Positions 3,476-31,314 of a stretch of DNA of 64,000 nt are shown in pieces. The position numbers and the translations under genes were made by a program. The stretch lies in the NCBI RefSeq assembly GCF_036507355.1, contig NZ_AP027877.1, one strand, 5' to 3'. The notes below the pieces were generated by a model. It searched no databases. It had not been told where the DNA came from and was given only the letters and a program-made list of their open reading frames with translations. Source of the stretch: Escherichia coli (GTDB lineage: Bacteria; Pseudomonadota; Gammaproteobacteria; Enterobacterales; Enterobacteriaceae). How positions within the stretch are numbered: position 1 is the stretch's first letter; each line of letters starts with the position of its first letter.

Positions 3476-4255
3476 ATGACGATGAATTCATTCGAGCGAA
3501 GGAATAAGATCATCCAATTAGTGAATGAACAGGGAACCGTGCTTGTTCAGGATCTGGCGGGAGTATTTGCTGCCTCGGAAGCGACAATCCGTGCCGATTT
3601 GCGCTTTCTCGAACAAAAAGGCGTGGTTACGCGCTTTCATGGCGGTGCGGCGAAAATAATGTCCGGTAATAGTGAAACCGAGACCCAGGAAGTCGGGTTT
3701 AAAGAGCGATTTCAGCTCGCCAGCGCGCCAAAAAACAGAATAGCGCAGGCGGCAGTCAAAATGATCCACGAAGGGATGACCGTTATTCTCGACAGCGGAA
3801 GTACGACAATGCTTATCGCCGAAGGATTAATGACCGCCAAAAATATCACGGTGATTACCAACAGTCTCCCGGCAGCGTTTGCCCTTTCCGAAAATAAAGA
3901 CATTACTCTGGTCGTCTGTGGTGGCACGGTCCGCCATAAAACGCGCTCGATGCATGGTTCCATTGCCGAGCGTTCATTGCAGGATATTAATGCCGATTTA
4001 ATGTTTGTCGGTGCTGATGGTATTGATGCGGTTAATGGTATTACGACCTTTAATGAAGGTTATTCGATTAGCGGGGCGATGGTCACCGCCGCAAATAAAG
4101 TGATTGCCGTTCTCGATTCATCGAAATTTAATCGTCGCGGTTTTAATCAGGTACTGCCAATCGAAAAAATTGACATTATTATTACCGATGATGCCGTGTC
4201 AGATGTGGATAAACTGGCATTGCAGAAGACACGGGTAAAATTAATTACGGTGTAG
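3476..4255 (+). CDS. gatR: DeoR-family transcriptional repressor of the gat operon; uninterrupted here
   Basis: 259-aa continuous ORF with N-terminal HTH and C-terminal sugar-binding DeoR domain; alternative ATG at 3482. Confidence 0.85.
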   Translation: MTMNSFERRNKIIQLVNEQGTVLVQDLAGVFAASEATIRADLRFLEQKGVVTRFHGGAAKIMSGNSETETQEVGFKERFQLASAPKNRIAQAAVKMIHEGMTVILDSGSTTMLIAEGLMTAKNITVITNSLPAAFALSENKDITLVVCGGTVRHKTRSMHGSIAERSLQDINADLMFVGADGIDAVNGITTFNEGYSISGAMVTAANKVIAVLDSSKFNRRGFNQVLPIEKIDIIITDDAVSDVDKLALQKTRVKLITV

Positions 4256-4336: not shown

Positions 4337-5236
4337 TTAACGCAATAATGGACAATCTGGTGGTAATCGACAACGCAACGCCGCCGGAAGTATTTCAATA
4401 TGGAAGTTTTGCCCACTCAACGGTTCGCCATCAAGATTAAAAGTGATTTCGTGTGGGGCTTGTATATCAAACCACGACGAAGCGCCTTCGATAATATTCG
4501 GGTTATCTTCGTCAGATTTTAAGGTTGATACGAGAGCCGGAAGAATTTCATCGCCGGTAAAAATGCGCAGTTGCAGCAAGCCATCGTTAATTAACGCGTT
4601 CGGGCACAATTGTTGACCGCCACCGGCCTGACGCCCGTTACCAATACCAATGACCAGGGCGTCACCTTGCCAGTGAAAGTTTTCACCGCGGATTTCACAA
4701 CGGTCCGGTTGCAGAGTATCCATGCGCATTAAGCCATGAATGATGTAAGAGACGCCACCCAGCGCGGCTTTTAATTTTTCCGGCGTTTCTGTGGTAATAC
4801 GCGTCCCAAATCCGCCTGTCGCCATATTAATAAAACAGGTTTGTTTGTTGACCTGCGCCATATCTATCGCAATGGCGTTACCGGCAATTGCCAGTTTCAG
4901 CGCCTTATCCAGTGCCTCAGGAATCCCTACACTGGTGGCAAAATCATTGGCGGTTCCTAATGGCAAAATTCCCAGCGCGGGTATGTCATCCCCCTCACAC
5001 TGAATCAACGCCGTAGAAACTTCATTAATGGTGCCATCGCCACCACCGGCAATCACCGTTGCGACGCCCAACTTCCGGGCCTCCTCTACATATCGTGCGG
5101 CATCGCCTTTCTCCCAGGTGACCCGCACATGGATCGTCATTCCTTCCTCACGCAACAGCATAATTGCTTCGCGCAATGGTAAATTGTCAGTACTTTTGCC
5201 ATTAAGAATCAGTAAGCTGGCGGGAAATTCTGCCAT
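4337..5236 (-). CDS. yegS: lipid kinase YegS (DAGK-family)
   Basis: 299-aa [19 protein letters not shown]... with GGDGT motif typical of diacylglycerol-kinase fold. Confidence 0.9.
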
Positions 5237-5626
5237 GATCGTATGTGCCTTTATGATTGGTCTGTAGATAGTGTAGAGCAGAAAAGAAAAGGTGGAGTCA
5301 GAACAGGATGAAAGTCGGAGGATAAATAGTCAGTTCAAGTATGGAGGATTCAGTGGTTACCACCAGGAGCTTGCAATGGGGACAGCGAATACTAACGGCA
5401 GCCACCGATAAATTTCAAAAAAGAGCATATACCTAATATTCAACTAAACAGTGGCATCTTCAATATAATATATTAAAGCCTCCATGGAGTTACCCGGAAG
5501 GGCCTCCATGTCCGTAATTCCTACTTATGTAGGAAATGTTGTACAGAACATTTATTATAATCCTATTCAATTATAATAATCATGCCATTATTATATTTAA
5601 ACACTAGAGAGTGTCGTTGGTATTTA

Positions 5627-5959
5627 ATGGGGGAAGGTGAGGTGAACAAGATAGCTGCTATATCATTAATTAGTGTTTTTCTTATGTCTGGTTGTGCTGT
5701 GCATAATGATGAGACAAGTATCGGTAAATTTGGTCTTGCATATAAAAGTAATATTCAGCGTAAACTCGATAATCAATACTACACCGAAGCCGAAGCTTCT
5801 TTAGCCAGGGGCAGAATTTCTGGTGCAGAAAATATAGTAAAAAATGATGCAGCCCATTTCTGTGTTACTCAGGGCAAAAAAATGCAGATAGTTGACCTGA
5901 AGACAGAAGGTGCAGGATTACATGGCGTCGCTCGTCTGACATTCAAATGTGGAGAGTGA
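5627..5959 (+). CDS. yegR: YegR, small putative lipoprotein of unknown function
   Basis: ORF with signal peptide and lipobox (LMSGC); start chosen at internal ATG (MGEGEV), upstream ORF extension unsupported. Confidence 0.6.
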   Translation: MGEGEVNKIAAISLISVFLMSGCAVHNDETSIGKFGLAYKSNIQRKLDNQYYTEAEASLARGRISGAENIVKNDAAHFCVTQGKKMQIVDLKTEGAGLHGVARLTFKCGE

Positions 5960-6117
5960 GAATATTTTTTGGTAAGCGCCAAACATGCGCGTTCTGGTTG
6001 TGCTTAGCCGGAACCTGTGCGAGCACGATGCCGTTACGTGAAAGGCATCGTGCTATGAAGGGAGATTCTATCGATGTGGTCAATGGAAGACGGTGACCAG
6101 GGATAGGGCTTATGCAT

Positions 6118-6204
6118 AAAAAATAAGCCCGTGTAAGGGAGATTACACAGGCTAAGGAGGTGGTTCCTGGTACAGCTAGCATTTTATGGGTTATGTTTTT
6201 CAGC
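6118..6204 (-). ncRNA. cyaR: CyaR (RyeE) Hfq-dependent small RNA
   Basis: Reverse complement of 6118-6204 reads GCUGAAAAACAUAACCCAUAAAAUGCUAGC...CACGGGCUUAUUUUUU, matching the CyaR sequence as I recall it, with terminal hairpin and U-tail. Confidence 0.85.
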
Positions 6205-6288
6205 GAAACGGATGATAACCTTAATAAATGCAGCTGTATGTGATCGGTTTCTAAGAATTTTCCATCCGGGAAAAATAATCGAAATTAA

Positions 6289-7650
6289 TCACTTACCGTG
6301 TGGGTTACGCGTGGTTTCCCCGGAGAAATTACGCATCAGCAGCGCGTAATTTAGCTCAAGATCCTGCGGCACCGGGAGCCACACAGTATAACCATCGCCT
6401 GGTGCTACCGGCATAGCTTCGCCTTTGGCGTTTTCCATGTGCTCAAGGGTAAAGTTAATGTTGCCTTGCGGCGTCATCAGCTCAAGGCTGTCGCCAACGG
6501 AGAATTTATTTTTCACCGCTACCGCCGCGAGGTCCCCCTTGCGCTCACCGGTAAACTCACCAACAAACTGCTGGCGGTCAGAAACTGAATAACCGTATTC
6601 GTAGTTCTGATAATCGTCGTGAGTATGACGACGCAGAAATCCTTCGGTGTAACCACGATGCGCCAGACCTTCCAGAGTTTCCAGCAGGCTGGTATCGAAC
6701 GGTTTTCCCGCAGCGGCGTCATCGATAGCTTTGCGGTAAACCTGTGCGGTGCGTGCGCAATAGTAGAAAGATTTAGTACGGCCTTCGATTTTCAGCGAAT
6801 GCACGCCCATTTTGGTCAGGCGTTCTACATGGGCGATGGCGCGCAGATCTTTCGAGTTCATGATGTAAGTGCCGTGCTCATCTTCAAACGCGGTCATATA
6901 CTCGCCCGGACGCTGGGCTTCTTCGATCATAAACACTTTGTCGGTTGGCGCGCCAATACCAAGCGTAGGCTCAACGTTTTGCACCGGAATCGGCTCGTAC
7001 TTGTGTACGATGTTGCCGACGTCATCTTCTTTACCTTCCTGTACGTTGTACTCCCAGCGGCAGGCATTGGTGCAGGTTCCCTGGTTCGGGTCGCGTTTGT
7101 TAATGTAGCCCGAGAGCAGGCAGCGACCGGAGTAGGCCATGCACAGTGCGCCGTGAACGAAGATCTCGATCTCCATATCCGGCACCTGATTGCGGATCTC
7201 TTCAATCTCTTCCAGCGACAGCTCGCGAGAGAGGATCACGCGGGTCAGGCCCATTTGCTGCCAGAATTTCACCGTCGCCCAGTTTACGGCGTTAGCCTGC
7301 ACCGAGAGGTGGATCGGCATTTCAGGGAAGTGCTCACGCACCAGCATAATCAGCCCTGGATCGGACATAATCAGCGCATCCGGCCCCATTTCCACCACCG
7401 GTTTCAGGTCACGGATAAAGGTTTTCAGCTTGGCGTTGTGCGGGGCAATGTTGACCACGACATAAAACTTTTTCCCCAGCGCGTGGGCTTCATTGATGCC
7501 GAGCTGAAGATTTTCGTGGTTGAATTCGTTGTTGCGCACACGCAGGGAGTAACGCGGCTGGCCCGCATAAACAGCATCTGCGCCATAAGCGAAAGCGTAA
7601 CGCATATTTTTCAGCGTTCCCGCCGGGGAAAGGAGTTCCGGTTTAAACAT
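6289..7650 (-). CDS. yegQ: U32-family peptidase YegQ
   Basis: 453-aa ORF MFKPELLSPAGTLKNMRYAFAYGADAVYAGQPRYSLR... characteristic of peptidase U32 family. Confidence 0.9.
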   Translation of the reverse strand: MFKPELLSPAGTLKNMRYAFAYGADAVYAGQPRYSLRVRNNEFNHENLQLGINEAHALGKKFYVVVNIAPHNAKLKTFIRDLKPVVEMGPDALIMSDPGLIMLVREHFPEMPIHLSVQANAVNWATVKFWQQMGLTRVILSRELSLEEIEEIRNQVPDMEIEIFVHGALCMAYSGRCLLSGYINKRDPNQGTCTNACRWEYNVQEGKEDDVGNIVHKYEPIPVQNVEPTLGIGAPTDKVFMIEEAQRPGEYMTAFEDEHGTYIMNSKDLRAIAHVERLTKMGVHSLKIEGRTKSFYYCARTAQVYRKAIDDAAAGKPFDTSLLETLEGLAHRGYTEGFLRRHTHDDYQNYEYGYSVSDRQQFVGEFTGERKGDLAAVAVKNKFSVGDSLELMTPQGNINFTLEHMENAKGEAMPVAPGDGYTVWLPVPQDLELNYALLMRNFSGETTRNPHGK

Positions 7651-7752: not shown

Positions 7753-8049
7753 TTAGCTCCAGTGTAAATGTCTGGTGGCGTCCTGGTTTTGGTTAAGGAT
7801 ACGAATGACGATAATTTCCCCTGGTGATTGCAGGAAATAAATTACGTGGCGTTCAAAAGGAAGAACAAAAATACCTTCGCCTAATTCAGGTCTGGGCGTA
7901 CCTATATTATTGTTACTCAGAATCTGGAGAACGTCTGAAAGATGTTCCACATATCTGTCGGCTTGTGGTTCGCCGAAATGGTGATAACTGTAATACCAGA
8001 TGCCTTCTAAATCCTCATTGGCTTTTGGCATGAGTTTAATAATACGCAC
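7753..8049 (-). CDS. ParE/RelE-superfamily toxin
   Basis: 98-aa ORF immediately downstream of, and 1 nt from, an RHH antitoxin ORF; ParE-like sequence pattern (..IFY...I.IIRIL...). Confidence 0.75.
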   Translation of the reverse strand: MRIIKLMPKANEDLEGIWYYSYHHFGEPQADRYVEHLSDVLQILSNNNIGTPRPELGEGIFVLPFERHVIYFLQSPGEIIVIRILNQNQDATRHLHWS

Positions 8050-8050
8050 A

Positions 8051-8302
8051 TTATTTCCTTATCCCTGCTTTCACCTTCCGTAAAAACGCGTCCTTTTCCC
8101 ACGGCTGAGCTTCACCACTACTCAACCCTTCTGCAAGCATGTCACGTAACGCTTGCAGGCGAGACTCTGCTTGCTTTTCTCGAAGTAAGCGCAGTGACTC
8201 ACGGATCACTTCGCTTTGGGTGCGATAGTCGCCGGATTCAATTAAGGACTCGATAAATTCACGCAACTCATCGCCGAGATCAACCGTCATCGTTCTGGCC
8301 AT
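8051..8302 (-). CDS. ParD-like (RHH/COG3609-type) antitoxin
   Basis: 83-aa ORF MARTMTVDLGDELREFIESLIESGDYRTQSEVIRESLRLLRE..., typical ParD antitoxin; precedes toxin ORF. Confidence 0.75.
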   Translation of the reverse strand: MARTMTVDLGDELREFIESLIESGDYRTQSEVIRESLRLLREKQAESRLQALRDMLAEGLSSGEAQPWEKDAFLRKVKAGIRK

Positions 8303-20289: not shown

Positions 20290-20440
20290 GCCCCTCCCGA
20301 GGAAGGGGCCATAAATAAGGAAAGGGTCATGATGAAGATACTCATCATCGTGGCGCTCTTAGTGATTAGCTACCCAGCATACTAAGACTACCAGGGCGGG
20401 GGAAACCCCGCTCTACCCTCACTCCTGAAAGTATGCCTTC
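20290..20440 (-). ncRNA. sib: Sib-family antisense sRNA (antitoxin) overlapping ibs copy 1; boundaries approximate
   Basis: By family knowledge Sib RNAs are about 140 nt and fully antisense to ibs; minus-strand hairpin GGCCCCTTCCTCGGGAGGGGC+TTTCCC at 20291-20320 is a candidate terminator. Confidence 0.45.
20329..20385 (+). CDS. ibs: Ibs-family type I toxin peptide (MMKILIIVALLVISYPAY)
   Basis: 18-aa hydrophobic peptide ORF with MMK start and RBS aagg, inside Sib/Ibs repeat unit. Confidence 0.8.
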   Translation: MMKILIIVALLVISYPAY

Positions 20441-20636
20441 ACGTTCAGAATGTCAATCCGCAGGCTTTGCAGTCTGCGATCCTGCCAGCAAATATTCTTT
20501 GCGAGACGTTACGCAATAATCACAGAGGAAACTATTTTGTTCACGCGTTAGCGATAGACTGAATTCAGGGCGAAAGGAGGTAAGCCGACGATTTCAGCGG
20601 GACGCTGAAACGGGAAAGCCCCTCCCGAGGAAGGGG

Positions 20637-20648
20637 CCTTAAATAAGG
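20637..20648 (+). repeat. attL core: 12-bp direct repeat CCTTAAATAAGG flanking the island
   Basis: Identical 12-mer at 20637-20648 and 30686-30697; left copy ends the sib half-unit, right copy directly precedes the ibs RBS. Confidence 0.7.
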
Positions 20649-20721
20649 TAAGTTGCACATTTAAAATCTCTTTAATTATCAATAAACTACAATGTATAGG
20701 TCATTATTAGTCAAAATAAAA

Positions 20722-21621
20722 TCATTTGTTGATTTCAATTTTGTCCCATTCTCTCCCTCGGCTATCCCTATACCGCGCCGCCATTGAATCTGATTTATGT
20801 CCGAGAAGACGTTGAGCAAACTTATCGCCAATCTGATTCCGGTATAGCCTCGCCGACAGGCTACGCAGTTCATGGAATGTTGGTGGGTCTCCATCAAATG
20901 AGAGTCCAGATGCATTTCTCGCCTTTGTAAAATACTTCGATACTGTTTTCGGGGAAAGCGGTTCGTGATGCGTTGAGGCGATTATAGTTTCACTGCCGCT
21001 GGCCTCCCTGCATTTCTGTAGTGTATCAGCCAATGAGATATTGAGCGCGTCAATCGTTAGCATCAGCGGAATGGCGAGCTTAGCCCCTGTTTTACCCTGT
21101 TCAATGTGAAGATGGTTGTCGTTTATGTCTGACCATTTCATTCTGCACAAATCGCCGACTCTCTGCCCTGTAACGACAGCCGAATCCATCGCCAGTCTTA
21201 GCCAGATTGGGAGAGGTTCGGCTGCATGGTAAATCGCGACATACTCATTAGCTGTCAGCCTTGAGCGCCTTACTTCTGACTTTGCTGTGCGGGTTGCTGT
21301 TACCGGATTCGTTTCCACATGCCCCTCGGCTATTGCCTCACGAAAAACGTCAACAAGGGTTGACCTGATTAATTTTGCGGAAGCCGCTTTACCTTCTGCT
21401 ACGTAGGTGTTTAGCATTGCTGCCACCTCTTTCGTTGATATGTCAGCGAGCGGTTTGTCCGGCAATTTTCTTCGGATTGCCCTGATTTTGCTGGCGTAGT
21501 CGAGTAGAGTTTTCGTCCTGATCCCCCTCTCGCTGAGGATTGTTTCATATCGGTCAAGCCACGCATGAAGAGTGATTACGTCAGCGCCTTTAATCCTGTC
21601 TATCAGTGAGGTAGCCTGAGT
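20722..21621 (-). pseudogene. int: Tyrosine recombinase (phage integrase), N-terminally truncated
   Basis: Catalytic-domain motifs present (…HELRSLSARLY…LLGHKSDSMAARYRD…); reading frame continues upstream of the annotated start to 21621 (…SLIDRIKGADVITLHAWLDRYETILSERGIRTKTLLDYASKIRAIRRKLPDKPL) and is cut by an IS3-family fragment. Confidence 0.75.
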
Positions 21622-22120
21622 TTAACGGACACTCCTTCCTGAAATAGAATGGCATCAGAAGGAGCTAATAATGAGCAGAAAAACCCAACGTTACTCTAAA
21701 GAGTTCAAAGCCGAAGCTGTCAGAACGGTTCTTGAAAATCAACTTTCGATCAGTGAAGGCGCTTCCCGATTATCTCTTCCTGAAGGCACTTTAGGACAAT
21801 GGGTTACCGCCGCCAGAAAAGGGCTCGGTACTCCTGGTTCCCGCACGGTGGCTGAACTGGAATCTGAAATTCTGCAACTGCGTAAGGCGTTAAATGAAGC
21901 TCGCCTTGAGCGAGATATATTAAAAAAAGCAACGTATTTTGCACAGGAGTCGCTGAAAAATACGCGTTAATCGAACAATGGCGACAACAATTTCCCATTG
22001 AAGCGATGTGTCAGGTATTTGGTGTATCCAGGAGCGGTTATTACAACTGGGTACAGCATGAACCCTCAGACAGAAAACAAAGTGATGAGCGGCTAAAACT
22101 GGAGATTAAGGTGGCACATA
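21610..22120 (+). mobile_element. IS3-family element, 5' fragment only (orfA plus first about 38 codons of orfB)
   Basis: orfA 21671-21970 plus orfB N-terminus MCQVFGVSRSGYYNWVQ... in -1 frame, homology lost after about 22118; boundaries approximate. Confidence 0.6.
21671..21970 (+). CDS. IS3-family transposase OrfA (HTH)
   Basis: 99-aa ORF MSRKTQRYSKEFKAEAVRTVLE...ERDILKKATYFAQE, typical IS3 OrfA with leucine zipper and A-run slippery site near 3' end. Confidence 0.8.
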   Translation: MSRKTQRYSKEFKAEAVRTVLENQLSISEGASRLSLPEGTLGQWVTAARKGLGTPGSRTVAELESEILQLRKALNEARLERDILKKATYFAQESLKNTR

Positions 22121-22149
22121 CGGTAACAAGCCGATACATGCCACACGCA

Positions 22150-22756
22150 TTACTCACCCTCTTTGATGCGAATGCCAGCGGCGCGTGGCACATTAACTTC
22201 CACGATGCGCACTGTTGGTTTGTACATCTCAATCGCTGTCAGCCAGTCAGCTCCTGTCATGCGCTTTTCCGCATCGCCATTAGTCCACTGAACCGGTACA
22301 CCAATAGCCTTCATCGCGATTTCTATTTCCCCGGCAATGGCGCTTTTTCCGCAACCAGTAAAACCAGAAACAACGACAAGAACTTCACCTTTGGCTGGTT
22401 TTATTTCCCGTGCTTCCAGTTCTGCAATGCGCTTACTTCCATCCGCGATTACTCCCTCGTAATATTCACGCTGCTCGTTGAGTTTTGATTTTGCTGCTTC
22501 AAGCTCAACTCTCAGCTTCCCTACCGTTAGCGCAATATCCTCGTTCTCCTGGTCACGGGATTTGATGTATTGCTGGTTTCTTTCCCGTTCATCCAGAAGC
22601 GCCAGCACGGTTGCCGGATTAGCCTTGGCAACAAAATCACGGACTGGCTTACAATCAATCTCAGCAATGGGTTGATACGATGTGTATCCATGCTGTCTTG
22701 TATAACTACCGTGACGAATAACGAAAAAATCACCATTTATTTTTTTAGCCTGCCAC
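22150..22756 (-). pseudogene. Phage-derived protein fragment with P-loop-like motif (GFTGCGKS); 5' end interrupted by IS1
   Basis: Reading frame runs into IS1 terminal bases at 22757; annotated start codon lies inside IS1. Confidence 0.5.
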
Positions 22757-22771
22757 GGTAATGACTCCAAC

Positions 22772-23275
22772 TTATTGATAGTGTTTTATGTTCAGATAAT
22801 GCCCGATGACTTTGTCATGCAGCTCCACCGATTTTGAGAACGACAGCGACTTCCGTCCCAGCCGTGCCAGGTGCTGCCTCAGATTCAGGTTATGCCGCTC
22901 AATTCGCTGCGTATATCGCTTGCTGATTACGTGCAGCTTTCCCTTCAGGCGGGATTCATACAGCGGCCAGCCATCCGTCATCCATATCACCACGTCAAAG
23001 GGTGACAGCAGGCTCATAAGACGCCCCAGCGTCGCCATCGTGCGTTCACCGAATACGTGCGCAACAACCGTCTTCCGGAGCCTGTCATACGCGTAAAACA
23101 GCCAGCGCTGGCGCGATTTAGCCCCGACATAGCCCCACTGTTCGTCCATTTCCGCGCAGACGATGACGTCACTGCCCGGCTGTATGCGCGAGGTTACCGA
23201 CTGCGGCCTGAGTTTTTTAAGTGACGTAAAATCGTGTTGAGGCCAACGCCCATAATGCGGGCTGTTGCCCGGCAT
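22772..23275 (-). CDS. insB: IS1 InsB
   Basis: 167-aa InsB ORF overlapping insA (frameshift fusion partner). Confidence 0.95.
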
Positions 23276-23469
23276 CCAACGCCATTCATGGCCATATCAA
23301 TGATTTTCTGGTGCGTACCGGGTTGAGAAGCGGTGTAAGTGAACTGCAGTTGCCATGTTTTACGGCAGTGAGAGCAGAGATAGCGCTGATGTCCGGCGGT
23401 GCTTTTGCCGTTACGCACCACCCCGTCAGTAGCTGAACAGGAGGGACAGCTGATAGAAACAGAAGCCAC
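23194..23469 (-). CDS. insA: IS1 InsA
   Basis: 91-aa [43 protein letters not shown]... Confidence 0.95.
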
Positions 23470-23548
23470 TGGAGCACCTCAAAAACACCATCATACACTA
23501 AATCAGTAAGTTGGCAGCATCACCGCCTGCCACGGTAATGACTCCAAC

Positions 23549-24052
23549 TTATTGATAGTGTTTTATGTTCAGATAATGCCCGATGACTTTGTCATGCAGC
23601 TCCACCGATTTTGAGAACGACAGCGACTTCCGTCCCAGCCGTGCCAGGTGCTGCCTCAGATTCAGGTTATGCCGCTCAATTCGCTGCGTATATCGCTTGC
23701 TGATTACGTGCAGCTTTCCCTTCAGGCGGGATTCATACAGCGGCCAGCCATCCGTCATCCATATCACCACGTCAAAGGGTGACAGCAGGCTCATAAGACG
23801 CCCCAGCGTCGCCATCGTGCGTTCACCGAATACGTGCGCAACAACCGTCTTCCGGAGCCTGTCATACGCGTAAAACAGCCAGCGCTGGCGCGATTTAGCC
23901 CCGACATAGCCCCACTGTTCGTCCATTTCCGCGCAGACGATGACGTCACTGCCCGGCTGTATGCGCGAGGTTACCGACTGCGGCCTGAGTTTTTTAAGTG
24001 ACGTAAAATCGTGTTGAGGCCAACGCCCATAATGCGGGCTGTTGCCCGGCAT
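23549..24052 (-). CDS. insB: IS1 InsB (copy 2)
   Basis: Identical to copy 1 InsB. Confidence 0.95.
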
Positions 24053-24246
24053 CCAACGCCATTCATGGCCATATCAATGATTTTCTGGTGCGTACCGGGT
24101 TGAGAAGCGGTGTAAGTGAACTGCAGTTGCCATGTTTTACGGCAGTGAGAGCAGAGATAGCGCTGATGTCCGGCGGTGCTTTTGCCGTTACGCACCACCC
24201 CGTCAGTAGCTGAACAGGAGGGACAGCTGATAGAAACAGAAGCCAC
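23971..24246 (-). CDS. insA: IS1 InsA (copy 2)
   Basis: Identical to copy 1 InsA. Confidence 0.95.
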
Positions 24247-24296
24247 TGGAGCACCTCAAAAACACCATCATACACTAAATCAGTAAGTTGGCAGCA

Positions 24297-25112
24297 TCAC
24301 CCTTCCTTGATTCTTTTTTCTTCTGCTATTCTGGCTTGCTCTTTTGCTTCAGCCTCGCGCCGGATTCGTTCAGCCTCCTCCTGTGCTTTTCTGCGTTCTG
24401 CTTCAATTGCTGCCTGCTTTTCTCTTTCAGCTCGTTCTGCTGCCTCTTTTGCTTCGCGCTGTGCTCTCTGCTCGGCTTCAATGCGTTCACGCTCTGCACG
24501 TTCCGCTGCGGCCTTAGCTTCTGCTTCTCGCCTTGCTGCTGCTTCAATTTCGGCTTTTGCCTTTGCTTCGGCTTCAGCTCTGGCTTTCTCTTCAGCTTCT
24601 CTTTTTAAGCGTTCTTCATGCTCTCGCTTTTCCTGCTCCGCTTTGAGTCTTGCCTCTTCTCTTTGGCGGTCAAATTCGCGATCCATCAAAATCGCTATTT
24701 CATGGTCAGACTCAATTTGCTTTGCGAGAGCTTCAGCTGCTGCCTTAGCTTCTTCTTCGGCTTTAATCCGCGCCTGTTCTTCCTCATAATCAGTAAGAGG
24801 CTGGCGCGCCTTGGCTTTCAGTTCATCAAGGCGATCGCGCACTGTCTTGCGGTTGGCATCAATTAGCTTTGGAATTTCCTTCAGTTCAGCAACAAGGTCT
24901 TTGCCAAGACCATCGAGATATGTTTTCGTCTGCGCAACTTTATACGCCAGAGAAGCGATCTCCTTTCTGCCCTTTGCCGTTGTGATATCAGGCACAAAGG
25001 ACATAACTTCACGTTCAACCTTTTGAAGGATTTCTTCAATCTGGTCGGCAGACTGAAATACAGTCATTGCATTTGCTTTTTCAATAACAACTAAATCTGT
25101 TACTTCACTCAT
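24297..25112 (-). CDS. Phage-associated coiled-coil protein with long K/E/A/R-rich repeat region; 3' end abuts IS1, stop codon created at junction
   Basis: ATG with strong RBS ggagga at 25112; low-complexity EAKAKAE/RREAEAK repeats; frame terminates using IS1 terminal bases. Confidence 0.55.
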   Translation of the reverse strand: MSEVTDLVVIEKANAMTVFQSADQIEEILQKVEREVMSFVPDITTAKGRKEIASLAYKVAQTKTYLDGLGKDLVAELKEIPKLIDANRKTVRDRLDELKAKARQPLTDYEEEQARIKAEEEAKAAAEALAKQIESDHEIAILMDREFDRQREEARLKAEQEKREHEERLKREAEEKARAEAEAKAKAEIEAAARREAEAKAAAERAERERIEAEQRAQREAKEAAERAEREKQAAIEAERRKAQEEAERIRREAEAKEQARIAEEKRIKEG

Positions 25113-25246
25113 ATATCCTCCATCAAAAAAATTGCCCTCACATCGGAGGGCAAAGAAGATTTCCAATAATCAGAACAAGTCGGCTCCTGTTTAGTTACGA
25201 GCGACATTGCTCCGTGTATTCACTCGTTGGAATGAATACACAGTGC

Positions 25247-25450
25247 TTATTCGCGAGCTTTGAGCATTGCGTCTGCAAACTTATATGCAGCGCTTGCTGC
25301 ATAATTAACAGCTCCATCAGAATCATTATCGATAATCGATGGATTGCTAATCATTGCTTGCATAGCCTTAGCAGCGAAGTAATCACGTAATGTCGCATCA
25401 CTTGCCATTTCTGGGCGTTTGATATCTGCTTCATAAAACTCGCACATCAT
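25247..25450 (-). CDS. Small hypothetical phage protein (67 aa)
   Basis: ORF with ATGATG start overlapping stop of an upstream fragment; no family assigned. Confidence 0.4.
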   Translation of the reverse strand: MMCEFYEADIKRPEMASDATLRDYFAAKAMQAMISNPSIIDNDSDGAVNYAASAAYKFADAMLKARE

Positions 25451-25617
25451 TCACCTCCCAGAGCCTTGCTGATTGCTGCAAGACCTTTATTAACAGCTCC
25501 ATACCATTCTGGATATGTTGTCGTTGTTCTATTTTTGGATTGCTTAAGTAATAACTGAAGTGCTTCGAGAAGGTCAGGTGCTGCCGCTATTAGATTGGCA
25601 TCTTCAATACATTGAAC
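25451..25617 (-). pseudogene. C-terminal fragment of a phage gene truncated by IS3-family element
   Basis: In-frame coding sequence ...DANLIAAAPDLLEALQLLLKQSKNRTTTTYPEWYGAVNKGLAAISKALGGE with stop overlapping next ATG; upstream continuation replaced by IS end at 25618. Confidence 0.4.
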
Positions 25618-25674
25618 TGAATCGCCACGGGTTTAACAGACACCTCAGAGTCATTTAAGATGGCTTAAAGAGAG

Positions 25675-25959
25675 GTGCCCATGAGCGGTAAGCGTTATCC
25701 CGAAGAGTTTAAAATTGAAGCAGTCAAACAGGTTGTTGATCGCGGTTATTCTGTTGCCAGCGTTGCAACACGTCTCGATATCACCACCCACAGCCTTTAC
25801 GCCTGGATAAAGAAGTACGGTCCGGATTCTTCCGCTAATAAAGAACAGTCAGATGCTCAGGCCGAGATCCGCCGTCTCCAGAAAGAGCTGAAGCGGGTTA
25901 CCGACGAACGGGACATATTAAAAAAAGCCGCGGCGTACTTCGCAAAGCTGTCCGACTGA
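25675..25959 (+). CDS. IS3-family transposase OrfA
   Basis: 94-aa MPMSGKRYPEEFKIEAVKQVV... HTH plus leucine zipper. Confidence 0.85.
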   Translation: MPMSGKRYPEEFKIEAVKQVVDRGYSVASVATRLDITTHSLYAWIKKYGPDSSANKEQSDAQAEIRRLQKELKRVTDERDILKKAAAYFAKLSD

Positions 25960-26015
25960 GGTACGCCTTTATCCGTGACAACACCTGTTGCTGGCCTGTT
26001 CGCCTGCTCTGTCGG

Positions 26016-26828
26016 GTGCTGGATGTTCATCCCAGTGGTTTTTACGCCTGGCTTCAGCAGCCGCATTCACAACGCCATCAGGCAGACCTGAGGCTGACAG
26101 GGCAGATTAAACAGTTCTGGCTGGAATCGGGATGCGTCTATGGTTATCGCAAAATCCATCTGGATCTGCGGGACAGCGGGCAACAGTGCGGAGTGAACAG
26201 AGTCTGGCGACTGATGAAACGTGTCGGGATAAAGGCTCAGGTCGGATACCGGAGCCCGCGGGCACGTAAAGGCGAGGCCAGTATCGTGTCGCCCAACAGG
26301 CTCCAGCGACAGTTCAATCCGGATGCTCCGGATAAGCGTTGGGTAACGGACATAACCTACATCAGGACCCACGAAGGCTGGCTGTATCTTGCCGTGGTTG
26401 TTGATCTGTTCTCACGCAAAATTATCGGCTGGTCCATGCAATCCCGGATGACAAAGGACATTGTCCTGAACGCACTGCTGATGGCTGTATGGCGCCGTAA
26501 TCCCCAAAAACAGGTGCTGGTTCATTCGGATCAGGGCAGTCAGTACACAAGCCATGAGTGGCAGTCGTTCCTGAAATCACACGGCCTGGATGGCAGCATG
26601 AGCCGTCGCGGTAACTGCCATGATAATGCGGTTGCAGAAAGCTTTTTCCAGTTGTTGAAACGCGAACGGATAAAGAAAAAGATCTACGGAACGCGGGAAG
26701 AAGCCCGCAGCGATATTTTTGATTACATCGAAATGTTTTATAACAGTAAGCGTCGGCATGGTTCCAGCGATCAGATGTCACCGACAGAATATGAAAACCA
26801 GTATTATCAACGGCTCGGAAGTGTCTAG
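26016..26828 (+). CDS. IS3-family transposase OrfB (DDE integrase domain); produced as OrfAB via -1 frameshift
   Basis: 270-aa ORF in -1 frame relative to orfA with DDE-type motifs (…WVTDITYI…HSDQGSQYTS…NAVAESFF…); frame continues back to slippery site. Confidence 0.85.
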   Translation: MLDVHPSGFYAWLQQPHSQRHQADLRLTGQIKQFWLESGCVYGYRKIHLDLRDSGQQCGVNRVWRLMKRVGIKAQVGYRSPRARKGEASIVSPNRLQRQFNPDAPDKRWVTDITYIRTHEGWLYLAVVVDLFSRKIIGWSMQSRMTKDIVLNALLMAVWRRNPQKQVLVHSDQGSQYTSHEWQSFLKSHGLDGSMSRRGNCHDNAVAESFFQLLKRERIKKKIYGTREEARSDIFDYIEMFYNSKRRHGSSDQMSPTEYENQYYQRLGSV

Positions 26829-26847
26829 ATTATCCGTGGCGATTCAA

Positions 26848-27236
26848 TATTGGCCTGATAATTGAAATTGATGACTCAGTATTCAATAATGCATCTAAAT
26901 TCGTAGGTGGTGTTGTTATTCTTGATAATCTAGTTTGTGAATGTAAGACCTATCTCAAAAGAATCGCTTTAAGTCGTATTAGCGGAAGTACTTTTGGCGC
27001 ATTCAACGGAACAGGTCTTACAATTAACGGAGCAAGAGAGATTTACATGGTAAACTCTGGTGGTCATTATAGTAATGACAATGCTATTCACTTAATCAAT
27101 GTGCGTAATAGTGTTTTTTCTGGCAGTAGTTTTACTAACGCTGTGAACTCATGTCTTCTTTTAGATGATTGTCACGACTTAACATTTACCAGTGTGAATG
27201 CTGGTTTTGTAGAGGTATACGAATAATGGCCAACAT
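26848..27236 (+). pseudogene. 3' fragment of a tailspike/beta-helix-like phage gene, truncated by the IS3-family element
   Basis: In-frame translation ...GGVVILDNLVCECKTYLKRIALSRISGSTFGAFNGTGLTINGAREIYMVNSGGHYSNDNAIHLINVRNSVFSGSSFTNAVNSCLLLDDCHDLTFTSVNAGFVEVYE* starts at IS boundary with no start codon. Confidence 0.5.
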
Positions 27237-27534
27237 AACCCCAAAGTATGGGTTCAACATATCAACAGGGTGCACAGGTATTATTTTAGTAGGTTGCACC
27301 AGTGCAGGTAATAGTATTGCAAACATAACTGGTGGCGGTTATGTAGATGGTAGCACTAGAGTATTAGCATGTAATGGCATGCCTGATTCAGTTATTGTTC
27401 TCCGTGGGTCTACTGCGGAGCGCCCTACAGCACCAGTCAGTGGGCAGATGTATTATGATACAACGCTAGGTCTTCCAATATGGTATAACGGCACAGCTTC
27501 ATCATGGCAGCGAGCTGATGGAACAAATACTTGA
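27229..27534 (+). CDS. Small tail-fibre-like protein (102 aa), function unknown
   Basis: ATG overlapping stop of preceding fragment (TAATGG); Gly/Thr/Ser-rich; ends near gtr module. Confidence 0.4.
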   Translation, partial: ANITPKYGFNISTGCTGIILVGCTSAGNSIANITGGGYVDGSTRVLACNGMPDSVIVLRGSTAERPTAPVSGQMYYDTTLGLPIWYNGTASSWQRADGTNT

Positions 27535-27579
27535 TTAATTTATGGCGCATCAATATAAAGTATCGATGCGCCATAATAA

Positions 27580-29067
27580 TCACTGACAAATGTTTTTGTC
27601 AAAATCAACTACAATAATATCATCATATGAGTATAAGTTATATTCATATGCTCTTTTAATCTTTGCGGTTGAGCAAAAGGTTTTTTCATTTAACACACTT
27701 GCAATGTTTGTATTCCCAGGGTGTTTAAAGTAAACTCCAACTCTATTCATATAAGGGAATGGCCAATCCCAATTATAGAAATACTCTGGGAAAAATCTAG
27801 ATATTAACGGGTAATTATTTCGTGCGTTTACAAAAACATCATTGTCTTTCTTTTTACCATTAAAAATAAGTATCTGATTTGTTTTTCCGCTTAACTCGAA
27901 AGCATCATTTTTAATCTGATGAAACAGAACTGTGGTTATGTTTTTTTCTTCTGTCATTGCATTTGTGTATGAACATAAAAAACCAAAAACATAAATCAGA
28001 GGAATTACAAGTATATATGTTATTGAATTTTTTGTTTCTCGCGAGAAAAGATAAACAATCATGAATAAGAACAACATCGTAGCAGAAAAACCGATCATCA
28101 CTCTTGGGGCGTCGATGTGATGCTGAAGTGGTAATAGAGTAGCAAAAGACAATATCAAAGCTGTTACTGGCGATGTTATTGTAATTAAAAAATTAATAAT
28201 ACCAGTAATACTTTTATTAGGTATTAATTTCTTTAGCGCGATAAATGTCGTCATTGCAATGAAAAATAAAAATATTACTATAAACGCAACTCGTCCTGAT
28301 TCCCCAAAAATACCACTAGATATTGAATGAAGATAAAATTTTAAGTTTTCATATATAACTGAAAAAATGCCTTCAGTTTTAATTGATGGGTGATCCGGGT
28401 CCCCAACAACAGTTAAAAATAAAGGAATAACCACCAAAAAATATAATGCAACACCTATAACTAATGATACCGTCTTTTCTATGAGGTAAGTTAATAGATG
28501 TCTGTTACTATCTGAGTTAAAGTACATGTAAACATATTTACACAGAATAATAACCAGCATGAAATTTAATGATGCTTGGTATATAGACAATATAAATAAT
28601 GTTAACAGGGCGGCAAAAGAAATATTTAAAATTGTCTTTTTGAAATTAAATATTACAACTGAGAATGACAATGCAATACTCATGAACATCGGTAAAACAT
28701 CAAAGCGATACATTGCATTTTCAATTAAAAATGGGCTTGATAAAATACCAAGAGGAACCAACAGTCCAATAAATTTATTATCTGTCGATATAAACATCCT
28801 GCTAAAAAAATACAGGCAAACAGATATCAAAAATACTGATAATATTGCAGGAAATGGGAATAAGTCCGTTATGTGCATGTTGAAATTCAATGCAATCATC
28901 AACATTTCAGCCAAAGGTCTACCATCCCTAGCCCATCCAGTATACCCCCATATAGCTCTTCCCTGATCATCTACATAATGAATATTTGCCATGATGATGG
29001 GGGTGAAATATATAAAAACAGATATCAAGAACCAATGGAAAGGTGTTTTGTTTTTATTTGCAATCAT
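27580..29067 (-). CDS. GtrC-like type-specific O-antigen glucosyltransferase (polytopic membrane protein)
   Basis: 495-aa ORF, multiple TM helices, strongly AT-rich, immediately downstream of gtrB with overlapping stop/start. Confidence 0.7.
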
Positions 29068-29983
29068 TTTTCTGATCCTTTAAAACATATCTTGGGCGCT
29101 GCTTAACTTCAATATAAATACGTCCTATGTACTCTCCAAGTACACCAATACCAATTAGTTGTACGCCGCCAAGAAACAATATTGATACAAGAATTGAAGG
29201 GTATCCAGGTACATTATTACCAAAAATCAATTTATCAATTATCATCCATGAACCGTATGTAAATGATATACATGCAATAAATAACCCAATATAGGTCCAC
29301 ATGCGAAGCGGGAAAGTAGAAAAGCTAGTGATCCCTTCCAGCGCCAAGTTCCATAGCTTCCATCCATTGAACTTTGTGCTTCCTGCAACGCGTTCTGCTC
29401 GCGCATATTCTACGACATCGGTTCGACCACCAACCCAGCTCAGCACACCCTTCATAAACAGGTTTCGTTCTGGCATGAGCTTAATGTTTTCTACTACTTC
29501 GCGAGACATGAGCCGGAAGTCGCCAACATTCTCTTCTATCTGAGGGTTGCTGATTTTGTTATGAAGTTTATAGAACCACTCAGCAGATTTACGCTTCAGC
29601 CTGCTGTCAGTGGAGCGGTCAGAGCGTTTAGCCAGAACCATATCTGCACCGGCCTGCCATTTCTCTATCAAGTGAGGAATAACTTCGATAGGGTCTTGCA
29701 GATCAACGTCAATCGGGATAATTGCCTCCCCGGTAGCATGGTCCAGACCTGCGAACAGGGCGGGTTCTTTGCCGAAGTTACGTGTGAACGACAGCGAAAC
29801 CACAAGCGGGTCGGCAACAGCAAGCTCGTTGATAATTGATTCTGTAGCGTCTTTGCTGCCATCGTTTATGAAGACTATCTCGACTTCATGCTGCTGAAGC
29901 CCTTCAAATTCGCGCACGGTTTTATAAAAAATAGGTATCGTGGCCTCTTCGTTAAAGACCGGAACGACTAAAGAAATTTTCAT
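29054..29983 (-). CDS. gtrB: GtrB bactoprenol glucosyltransferase (GT2 family)
   Basis: 309-aa [16 protein letters not shown]...[10 protein letters not shown]...C-terminal TM helices; matches conserved GtrB. Confidence 0.9.
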
Positions 29984-30342
29984 TTCGCATCCCTAAAGAC
30001 AATGAACTTTGAATAGATGAAACCGCACACCAGGCTGATGGCGGAGAAGGTGACAAGAGTTATCATCGGGGGAAGTGCGCATCTATCAGCAGCCCATCCA
30101 ACAGTAGCACTGAGTGTTCCCATGAACCCGACATATAACATGTAGCGCATCGTTGTAGTTGATGCTTTGAATGTGAATTTTGCATTCGCGAAGAAGCTAA
30201 AACTCACAGCCACAACGAAACCTGCGAAGTTTGCCAGAGCCTGATTGGTATGCGCGGCATAGATACATACACCAAAAACCACCCAGTGTATAAGTGTGTT
30301 CAGCACACCAATCGAGGTGTACCTTGCAAATATATTTAACAT
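29980..30342 (-). CDS. gtrA: GtrA flippase (small 4-TM protein)
   Basis: 120-aa [31 protein letters not shown]...; overlaps gtrB start. Confidence 0.9.
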
Positions 30343-30685
30343 TTATTTAATCAATGAGTTCTGAAAGGTATGAAGTCTATCATCCAAGTCTCAATCGATC
30401 GATACTTGCGGTAGTTGATGAGGAAAACTCTGGTACACAAAGCTTTGCACTGGACTGCAAGGTGTTGTGCTTCTCTGGAGTGCGACATGTTTGATAACAA
30501 AAAATTAGCGCAAGAAGACAAAAAATCACCTTGCGCTAATGCTCTGTTACAGGTCACTAATACCATCTAAGTGGTTGATTCATAGTGACTGGATATGTTG
30601 TGTTTTGTCGCATTTTGCAGTCTATTATTTAACCGCGAATTCGTGTAATGCGATGATTTTTAAGTGATTAATATTATTTTGTCAT

Positions 30686-30697
30686 CCTTAAATAAGG
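30686..30697 (+). repeat. attR core: 12-bp direct repeat CCTTAAATAAGG
   Basis: Identical to 20637-20648; followed by aaagggtcATGATG of ibs. Confidence 0.7.
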
Positions 30698-30705
30698 AAA
30701 GGGTC

Positions 30706-30762
30706 ATGATGAAGTGGATCATCATCGTGGTGCTCTTAGTCATAAGCTTCCCGGCTTACTAA
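30706..30762 (+). CDS. ibs: Ibs-family type I toxin peptide (MMKWIIIVVLLVISFPAY), right half of the unit split by the island
   Basis: 18-aa hydrophobic ORF; upstream repeat-unit sequence replaced by island DNA. Confidence 0.75.
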   Translation: MMKWIIIVVLLVISFPAY

Positions 30763-30994
30763 GACTACCAGGGCGGGGGAAACCCCGCTCTACCCTCACT
30801 CCTGAAAGTATGCCTTCACGATAAGATTGTCAATCTGCAGGCTTTGCAGTCTGCGATCCTGCCAGCAAATATTCTTTGCGAGTCGTTACGCAATAATCAC
30901 AGAGGGAACTATTTTGTTCACGCGTTAGCGATAGACTGCATTCAGGGCGAAAGGAGGTAAGCCGACGATTTCAGCGGGACGCTGAAACGGGGAA

Positions 30995-31145
30995 CCCTCT
31001 CCCGGAGAAGAGGGCTTTTAATAAGGAAAGGGTTATGATGAAGCACGTCATCATACTGGTGATACTCTTAGTGATTAGCTTCCAGGCTTACTAAGAACAC
31101 CAGGGGGAGGGGGAAACCTCTCCCTAACCCTCACTCCTGAAATTA
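30995..31145 (-). ncRNA. sib: Sib-family antisense sRNA overlapping ibs copy 3; boundaries approximate
   Basis: Same unit architecture as 20290-20440, with hairpin gggaaccctctcccggagaagagggc upstream of the ibs RBS. Confidence 0.4.
31035..31094 (+). CDS. ibs: Ibs-family type I toxin peptide (MMKHVIILVILLVISFQAY)
   Basis: 19-aa hydrophobic ORF within complete repeat unit 3. Confidence 0.8.
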   Translation: MMKHVIILVILLVISFQAY

Positions 31146-31314
31146 TGTCACTCCGCCCTTAGTGTCAATCGACGGCTCTCCGTTCTTGCGAGGCGAATAG
31201 CAAAATTTTCTGCGCCGCCGGGACTAATTCTGAAAGTTTCTTCGTTTGCTCTTATTTCATTATTGCAGTCGGTATGATACCGGACCTTAATAATTCTCTA
31301 AGAAAGGATTTCTT

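Follow-up and report, generated by a model that had tools for sequence, protein, structure and literature searches.

An unoccupied P2 attachment site within the cyaR gene of Escherichia coli, and signs of an older P2-like remnant around yegR

Introduction

In the Escherichia coli DNA analysed here, a stretch of 64,000 nucleotides (contig NZ_AP027877.1 of assembly GCF_036507355.1; hereafter the window, with positions counted from its first letter), the small RNA (sRNA) gene cyaR and the predicted lipoprotein gene yegR are neighbours, in the order gatD, gatR, yegS (−), yegR (+), cyaR (−) and yegQ/trhP (−). The yegR stop codon ends at 5959 and only 158 bp (5960–6117) separate it from cyaR, a gap considerably shorter than that of K-12. 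What accounts for this difference, and what kind of site is it that can be long in one strain and short in another? A preliminary description of the sequence had put the gap at about 160 bp, close to the measured value, and had placed ogrK and yegZ in it in K-12. It left two possibilities, that these genes were never acquired in the present lineage or that they were cleanly lost, and called the place a variable hotspot next to an sRNA gene.

The position is known from earlier work. In the genome paper of E. coli W, the cyaR RNA is listed as an insertion site that holds Wphi2 (P2) in W, ogr-D' in K-12 and P2*B in B, and is empty in Crooks (PMC3032704, Table 2); P2 insertion at cyaR, with the site occupied, remnant-bearing or empty according to strain, is already published (PMC3032704). 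The integrase of P2 is a tyrosine recombinase that carries out strand exchange within the core of its attachment sites, using arm sites of the phage attachment site (attP) together with integration host factor (IHF) (summarised in PMC3448106). Here we propose that two layers of P2 history are superimposed in the window: a bacterial attachment site (attB) of P2 that is at present unoccupied and, around it, the decayed remains of an older P2-like element. We place the probability of this explanation as a whole at roughly 0.8.

Results

A P2 core at the 3' end of an intact cyaR gene

The preliminary description had considered CyaR to be intact on the minus strand at 6118–6204, and this is borne out. 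The Rfam model RF00112 matches 6121–6206 (−) over model positions 1–85 of 85, with 100.7 bits against a gathering score of 47, and the gene is identical at 87 of 87 positions to the annotated 87-nt cyaR of K-12, of which 6118–6204 is the exact counterpart. The 100 nt upstream of the gene are also nearly those of K-12 (98 of 100 the same). The RNA folds into a structure ending with an 11-bp terminator hairpin and the U-tail UUAUUUUUU; this hairpin is the sole terminator-like site called within 5200–6400.

The last 27 nt of the gene are identical, at 27 of 27 positions, to the annotated attP core of P2, and the exact BLAST match runs to 28 nt. On the CyaR strand, the core begins with the final two bases of the terminator's 5' arm and continues through the loop and 3' arm to the U-tail. 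Insertions in other strains are found at the same place. E. coli O157:H7 FRIK2455 has a complete P2-like prophage exactly at the core, with int adjoining yegR and with genes for the integrase, C, cox, replication endonuclease, portal, terminase, capsid, tail and lysis. Among the sampled genomes in which the interval is split, six of six break at window position 6144, where the core ends, and their two matches share 6118–6144. The cryptic prophage PR-X of K-12 likewise begins inside the core. Segment 6118–6144 is, almost certainly, the unoccupied attB of P2 and its relatives, as judged from these sequence matches. It is also the site named locI in E. coli C; Barreiro and Haggard-Ljungquist are reported to have described both locI and the K-12 remnant in 1992. 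With P2 at locI and with PR-X (ogr-D') the window shares the identical 27-nt core, the position between cyaR and yegR and the orientation of integration. It differs from them in that the site is unoccupied and that ogrK, yegZ and the P arm/IHF segment of PR-X are absent.

By the established biology of P2, its integrase and IHF would recombine attP with this core and place a prophage between cyaR and yegR, with int beside yegR and the D–ogr end beside cyaR. CyaR would be regenerated unchanged in the lysogens, since phage and host share the same core. The same holds for other phages that integrate at the 3' ends of tRNA, tmRNA and sRNA genes, where the phage copy of the 3' end of the gene regenerates the RNA gene; P2-like prophages at rybB (PMC3032704) and Fels-2/SopE-phi at ssrA (PMC3448106) are examples. 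The present case differs from these in that the target is the Hfq-dependent CyaR, of which only the terminator loop, 3' arm and U-tail lie within the core.

The 3' arm of the CyaR terminator varies by lineage among the loci that we compared (L006–L103). It reads TTACACGGGC in E. coli, as in the P2 core, and TTACGCAGGC or TTACGCGGGC elsewhere. In E. albertii, Escherichia sp. E1V33 and E. whittamii, the 5' arm of the E. coli type (TGTGTAA) is combined with the other 3' arm, which gives a G-U pair. The dependence of the 3' arm on lineage and these mixed-arm terminators suggest that the 3' half of the terminator has been swapped by phage cores of differing sequence.

The short interval is the K-12 interval without PR-X

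In MG1655, cyaR lies at 2167114–2167200, PR-X at 2167183–2167811 and yegR at 2167989–2168306. PR-X is 629 bp long and contains ogrK and the yegZ pseudogene. Aligned as a whole, the K-12 interval does not show the same short gap, but measures 788 bp against 158 bp in the window; subtraction of the 629 bp of PR-X leaves 159 bp. In pairwise BLAST, window 6400–6110 is collinear with K-12 up to 2167208 and window 6135–5560 is collinear from 2167812 on, the two alignments sharing 26 nt of the window, on the att core. Apart from these 629 bp, K-12 and the window are collinear, and Ogr has no tblastn match in the window. The MG1655 annotation and the BLAST collinearity thus agree with the preliminary description: ogrK and yegZ are present in the K-12 interval and absent here.

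PR-X represents the D–ogr end of a P2-like prophage. At the junction with cyaR it has P2 IHF and P-arm sequence; on the yegR side a shortened core, ATAAAAAAATAAGCCCGTGTA, is fused to gene D, and neither int nor cox is present. K-12 retains a prophage stump made up of the P arm, ogrK and a piece of gene D joined to the truncated outer core; the cyaR of K-12 is unaltered, even though the last 18 nt of the gene formally lie within PR-X. Could the window lineage once have held this ogrK–yegZ remnant and lost it cleanly? The match of the window interval to the K-12 interval minus PR-X within 1 bp would fit such a loss. However, PR-X is unable to excise cleanly by site-specific recombination because int and cox are missing and the outer core is truncated, and its removal would need homologous recombination with an empty allele. 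In addition, no more than 358 of the 5,426 complete E. coli genomes surveyed have the PR-X junction; the window is not a close relative of K-12, the divergence between the two being about 4% over this segment; and the site is empty in strain TB06051, which is 100% identical to the window at the locus. Clean loss of PR-X is accordingly a very improbable account. Given that PR-X has no means of clean excision, it was most likely never present in the window lineage, so that of the two possibilities offered at first, the more probable is that ogrK and yegZ were never acquired. The lineage would have received no prophage of the PR-X type, or only phages that excised precisely; a past cycle of precise P2 integration and excision, which is scarless, may have taken place.

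Most E. coli genomes have an empty site

The survey of site states was made with the set of 5,426 complete E. coli genomes, in 5,423 of which the locus was found. The interval is contiguous, within the match-joining limit, in 4,562 of the 5,426 and split in about 861, and the class of some 860 occupied sites derived from the latter is an upper estimate. Since the contiguous genomes form the majority and the six sampled split ones break at the core, the empty state is that of the majority. The junction of gene D with the truncated core, which is specific for the K-12 type, makes up the 358 genomes mentioned above. These figures (358 remnant junctions and about 860 split intervals) support the notion of a variable hotspot, with a correction as to its location: the 27-nt core lies inside the 3' end of cyaR, not next to the gene. 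An intact CyaR without ogrK and yegZ shows a published P2 site as it is commonly seen, without an insert, and amounts to ordinary variation between strains. Strain TB06051, identical to the window at this locus, is from freshwater; the identity to the other sampled genomes is at most 98.8%.

A further allele, of the EcN/NC101 type, was found in 947 of the 5,426 genomes and has a 169-bp AT-rich segment directly after the yegR stop (window 5964). This sequence may have been inserted at that point, or else deleted from the window-type allele. The segment (EcN, L002 1905–2075) resembles nothing else in the window.

At several loci of Citrobacter, Enterobacter and Huaxiibacter (e.g. L016, L022, L023, L041, L063, L087, L090 and L093), a P2-type IHF/P-arm sequence and an ogr-type terminator follow directly after cyaR, so that the 3' end of cyaR is a P2-like integration site well beyond E. 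coli. A metagenome-assembled contig labelled Collinsella sp. (L061) also has cyaR and then a P2 arm and ogr, 99% identical to K-12 PR-X; it most likely represents E. coli contamination of an actinobacterial metagenome bin.

The yegR segment is an insertion at the core

A scan for the CyaR motif, with one genome per species, yielded 98 Enterobacteriaceae loci. The upstream neighbour yegQ is kept in nearly all of them, and in 55, from many genera, yegS starts 74–243 nt after CyaR. Within this set, only the E. coli loci (those of the window, K-12 and EcN) yielded YegR. Three Escherichia loci that have no yegR and count among the 55, those of E. whittamii, Escherichia sp. E1V33 and 'E. coli' E69 (the yegS of which is only about 88% identical), each join window 6118 to about 5317. 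The direct cyaR–yegS junction in other species and in these yegR-less Escherichia therefore identifies the yegR segment as an insertion at the core. Judging from these alignments, the ancestral order is yegQ–cyaR–yegS, and 5318–6117 is an insertion of about 0.8 kb that abuts the outer edge of the core. The island has a GC content of 0.41 compared with 0.50 in yegS, 0.54 in yegQ and 0.51 in the window; the value is 0.39 in yegR and falls to 0.37 over 5318–5641, against 0.50–0.54 in the flanking genes.

One could argue instead that Escherichia had the island from the start and that E. albertii, E. whittamii, E1V33 and E69 have lost it by deletion. The two core-like copies at its edges (see below) could have mediated such a deletion, and only four non-coli Escherichia lineages were sampled. 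Yet the 55 loci from many genera have the same direct cyaR–yegS junction as the yegR-less Escherichia, including, in Escherichia, the conserved yegS upstream region of the GACTTTCATCC type, and the island-free state is therefore ancestral for the family. An ancestral island is unlikely on this evidence; even then, it would still be an insertion bounded by att relics, and only its date would change.

The island edges resemble decayed P2-type att junctions

The cyaR-side edge of the island contains a predicted relic of an integrase arm-binding site. Window 6070–6105 reads TCGATGTGGTCAATG-GAAGACGGTGACCAG, and the annotated Int P-arm site of P2 reads TCGATGTGGTCAATGTGTGGAC-GTGACCAG; TCGATGTGGTCAATG is an exact 15-mer of the latter (P2 24293–24320). 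The relic has the same orientation and lies on the same side of the core as in attP. Its local alignment score is 38, compared with 15.1 ± 2.2 for shuffled sequences, and 0 of 2,000 shuffles reach 38. With the P-arm probe, 6070–6105 is the best match in the entire window (21 against 7.1 ± 1.4, with the second match at 14.5). The TGTGGTCA within the relic fits the published arm consensus tgTGGaCa (PMC3448106). All other pairings of flank and orientation remained at chance level; among these, as expected, were the cyaR-side (right) flank paired with P' and the left flank paired with P' in either orientation.

The opposite edge was analysed with an attL probe of 59 nt, which consists of the P2 core and 32 nt of P', against both strands of the 64-kb window with the true core masked. 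Its top match in the whole window is 5324–5379, with a score of 17.5 against 6.8 ± 1.2 and the next unrelated match at 13.5; this segment is identical to the P2 core and P' flank at 38 of 57 positions, with one gap. It sits at the island boundary that had been defined independently, on the strand expected for attL, and we accept it as a decayed attL because the contiguous core and P' probe gave its top match at just this boundary. K-12 and EcN carry the same relic, shifted by their extra 629 and 169 bp, respectively. In the yegR-less Escherichia and in the other genera, there is only the single true core and no attL relic.

A better preserved example of such a junction is available from E. albertii NBRC 107761 (L007), in which the cyaR–yegS gap holds a P2-like remnant of 3.3 kb and P-arm/IHF-like sequence follows cyaR. 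The attL of this remnant is identical to P2 at 60 of 67 positions (90%) and ends 7 nt before GACTTTCATCC, exactly as the attL relic of the window does. The only substantial cargo of the remnant is cdtA, cdtB and cdtC, the genes of the cytolethal distending toxin (L007 5932–8071). The two elements are thus alike in having attR by cyaR, attL 7 nt before the yegS upstream motif and a cargo without phage structural genes. They differ in length (3.3 kb versus 0.8 kb), in the state of attL (60/67 versus 42/67 in the same alignment) and in the cargo, which is a toxin in E. albertii and a lipoprotein in the window.

The inner 10 nt of the core, AAGGGAGATT, occur a second time at 6058–6067. We considered this repeat as a third, intermediate core and rejected it: the surrounding 27-mer matches at 15 of 27 positions, which is the chance level. 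It may be the residue of a further junction or a coincidence.

YegR and its homologues

YegR belongs to the precomputed family PF27694, which occurs sporadically in other contexts, and had no match in the local copy of Pfam. Nearly all homologues of YegR come from E. coli and Shigella, and a few are divergent (48–59% identity). The PHROG match of YegR (phrog_21109, E 3e-72) and its tblastn matches to 'phage' sequences were discarded, as they come from prophage records that include host flank. The same applies to the phage record vB_EcoM-720R8, which matches 5964–6144 and at first suggested that this flank is phage DNA: it is a prophage deposited with its host flank (gatR, yegS and yegR).

Discussion

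The results presented here bear on two questions of different age. For the present-day site, the answer follows a published pattern. The older layer is new, in the sense that no description of yegR as a prophage relic was found in the literature that we searched, which comprised a searchable library only. The 'empty' site is likely to be the surviving attR of an ancient P2-like prophage with yegR as its last cargo, as the sequences at the two island edges indicate. A P2-like element would have integrated at the same core in E. coli proper and then lost nearly everything. What remains would be the island of about 0.8 kb (5324–6117) with yegR, which is probably retained cargo of the old element, the decayed attL at the yegS edge and the relic of the Int arm site by the cyaR-side core. 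This core, which stayed perfect because it is part of CyaR, would now serve as the attB for present-day P2 phages.

Several observations weigh against such an older layer. In a blind ungapped scan, a core copy as good as the one at 5324 (17/27) was reached in 11% of the shuffled scans, and the local alignment of P' by itself has a p value of about 0.10. The components of attL are thus weak when taken separately; the match draws its strength from its being contiguous and from where and how it is oriented, points that were in part judged in retrospect. No recognisable phage gene is present in the island, where Int and Ogr are without a match, and YegR has no genuine phage homologue according to tblastn and PHROG. 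The divergent homologues of YegR are located outside P2-like prophages, in a region rich in insertion sequence (IS) and Tn3 elements in Enterobacter, and elsewhere as single-gene inserts between housekeeping genes. These contexts are consistent with a mobile accessory gene; carriage by a phage is not thereby shown. Finally, the timing of the insertion is loose because E. fergusonii, E. marmotae, E. ruysiae and Salmonella were outside the sample.

These points could be taken to mean that the site is a pristine attB, with the likenesses to the P arm and attL due to chance, or to an ancestor of P2 that captured host flank by imprecise excision, so that the sequence passed from host to phage. The marginal significance of each attL component alone and the absence of any remaining phage gene from the island speak for this view. 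On the other hand, the best matches of both probes in the entire window fall exactly at the two edges of the island, and their strand and order are correct. In addition, the arm repeat with the consensus tgTGGaCa is common to P2-type phages that have differing attB sites (PMC3448106), and it occurs on both arms of the P2 attP, while island-free genomes have no arm-like sequence beside cyaR. The repeat being native to these phages and absent from island-free genomes, the host copy derives from the phage, not the reverse. A pristine attB is thus an unlikely alternative, and a surviving attR of an old P2-like prophage accounts better for both edges.

Such a relic layer would explain the origin of yegR, an orphan gene restricted to E. 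coli. It would also mean that K-12 carries two stacked P2-type remnants, of which the PR-X annotation covers only the younger. The full prophage, the 3.3-kb cdt remnant, the 629-bp PR-X and the 0.8-kb yegR island would form a decay series at one att site. The terminator of CyaR illustrates how part of an sRNA can be held constant jointly by its function in the host and by identity with a phage att core. The presence of a relic arm site next to attB also raises the question of whether such sequences influence the choice of site by tyrosine integrases. One may go further and speculate that the preferred docking site of P2 in E. coli is a second-hand attR, not a plain attB, that yegR is a domesticated moron fixed species-wide, and that the leftover arm-type site, 17 nt from the core, helps to recruit P2 integrase and adds to the strong preference that P2 shows for this locus above other sites in the chromosome. 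We regard this extended scheme as unlikely.

Features of the locus and neighbouring observations

The features discussed above are collected in Table 1. The hairpin downstream of yegR was tried as a terminator of this gene and rejected, as it lacks a T-run and the terminator scan did not call it.

Table 1. Features of the yegS–yegQ region, in window coordinates (ORF, open reading frame).
Feature	Position	Strand	Basis
yegS (lipid kinase), ancestral downstream neighbour of cyaR	4337..5236	-	ORF; adjacency in other genera
Ancestral cyaR–yegS intergenic sequence (yegS upstream region)	5237..5317	-	Collinear with what follows cyaR directly in E69, E1V33 and E. whittamii
Decayed attL-like junction: core copy (17/27) and P'-proximal attP flank	5324..5379	+	Aligned to P2 attP
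AT-rich island interior upstream of yegR	5380..5641		Missing from yegR-less Escherichia
yegR, 105-amino-acid predicted lipoprotein, GTG start	5642..5959	+	ORF; RefSeq annotation in matches
Hairpin downstream of yegR, 14-nt arms, 93% complementary, no T-run	6022..6054		Repeat search
Second copy of AAGGGAGATT (inner 10 nt of core)	6058..6067	+	Direct repeat of 6135–6144
Relic of P2-type integrase arm-binding site (P arm), predicted	6070..6105	+	Likeness to P2 Int P arm
P2 att core (unoccupied attB)	6118..6144		AAAAAATAAGCCCGTGTAAGGGAGATT, identical to annotated attP core of P2, 24356–24382
cyaR (CyaR/RyeE sRNA gene), intact	6118..6204	-	Rfam RF00112 and identity to K-12
cyaR upstream/promoter region, between cyaR and the end of yegQ	6205..6288	-	Predicted promoter, from K-12 identity
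yegQ/trhP, conserved upstream neighbour of cyaR	6289..7650	-	ORF; RefSeq annotation of matching genomes

Some observations were made on neighbouring parts of the window. The gatR gene (3476–4255, +) is whole, and that of K-12 is interrupted by IS3E. Between yegQ and yegP there is a ParE toxin/ParD antitoxin pair (7753–8302, −; Pfam E values of 1.8e-13 and 4.3e-19, respectively); in K-12, yegQ and yegP are separated by no more than 146 bp of intergenic DNA. RefSeq annotates the module, which is present in 1,843 of the 5,426 genomes.

Farther downstream, three Sib antitoxin RNAs are encoded, all on the minus strand (20314–20456, 30691–30833 and 31020–31168). In K-12, sibA and sibB are adjacent and lie next to mdtA. 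The stretch of about 10 kb between the first Sib gene and the Sib pair contains a truncated phage integrase, an Ead/Ea22-like gene, two IS1 transposases, an IS3-family transposase and the gtrA/gtrB/gtrII operon for O-antigen glucosylation. The Sib-flanked region, 20314–31168, looks like another degraded prophage, in this case a serotype-converting one, that lies between Sib/Ibs repeats.

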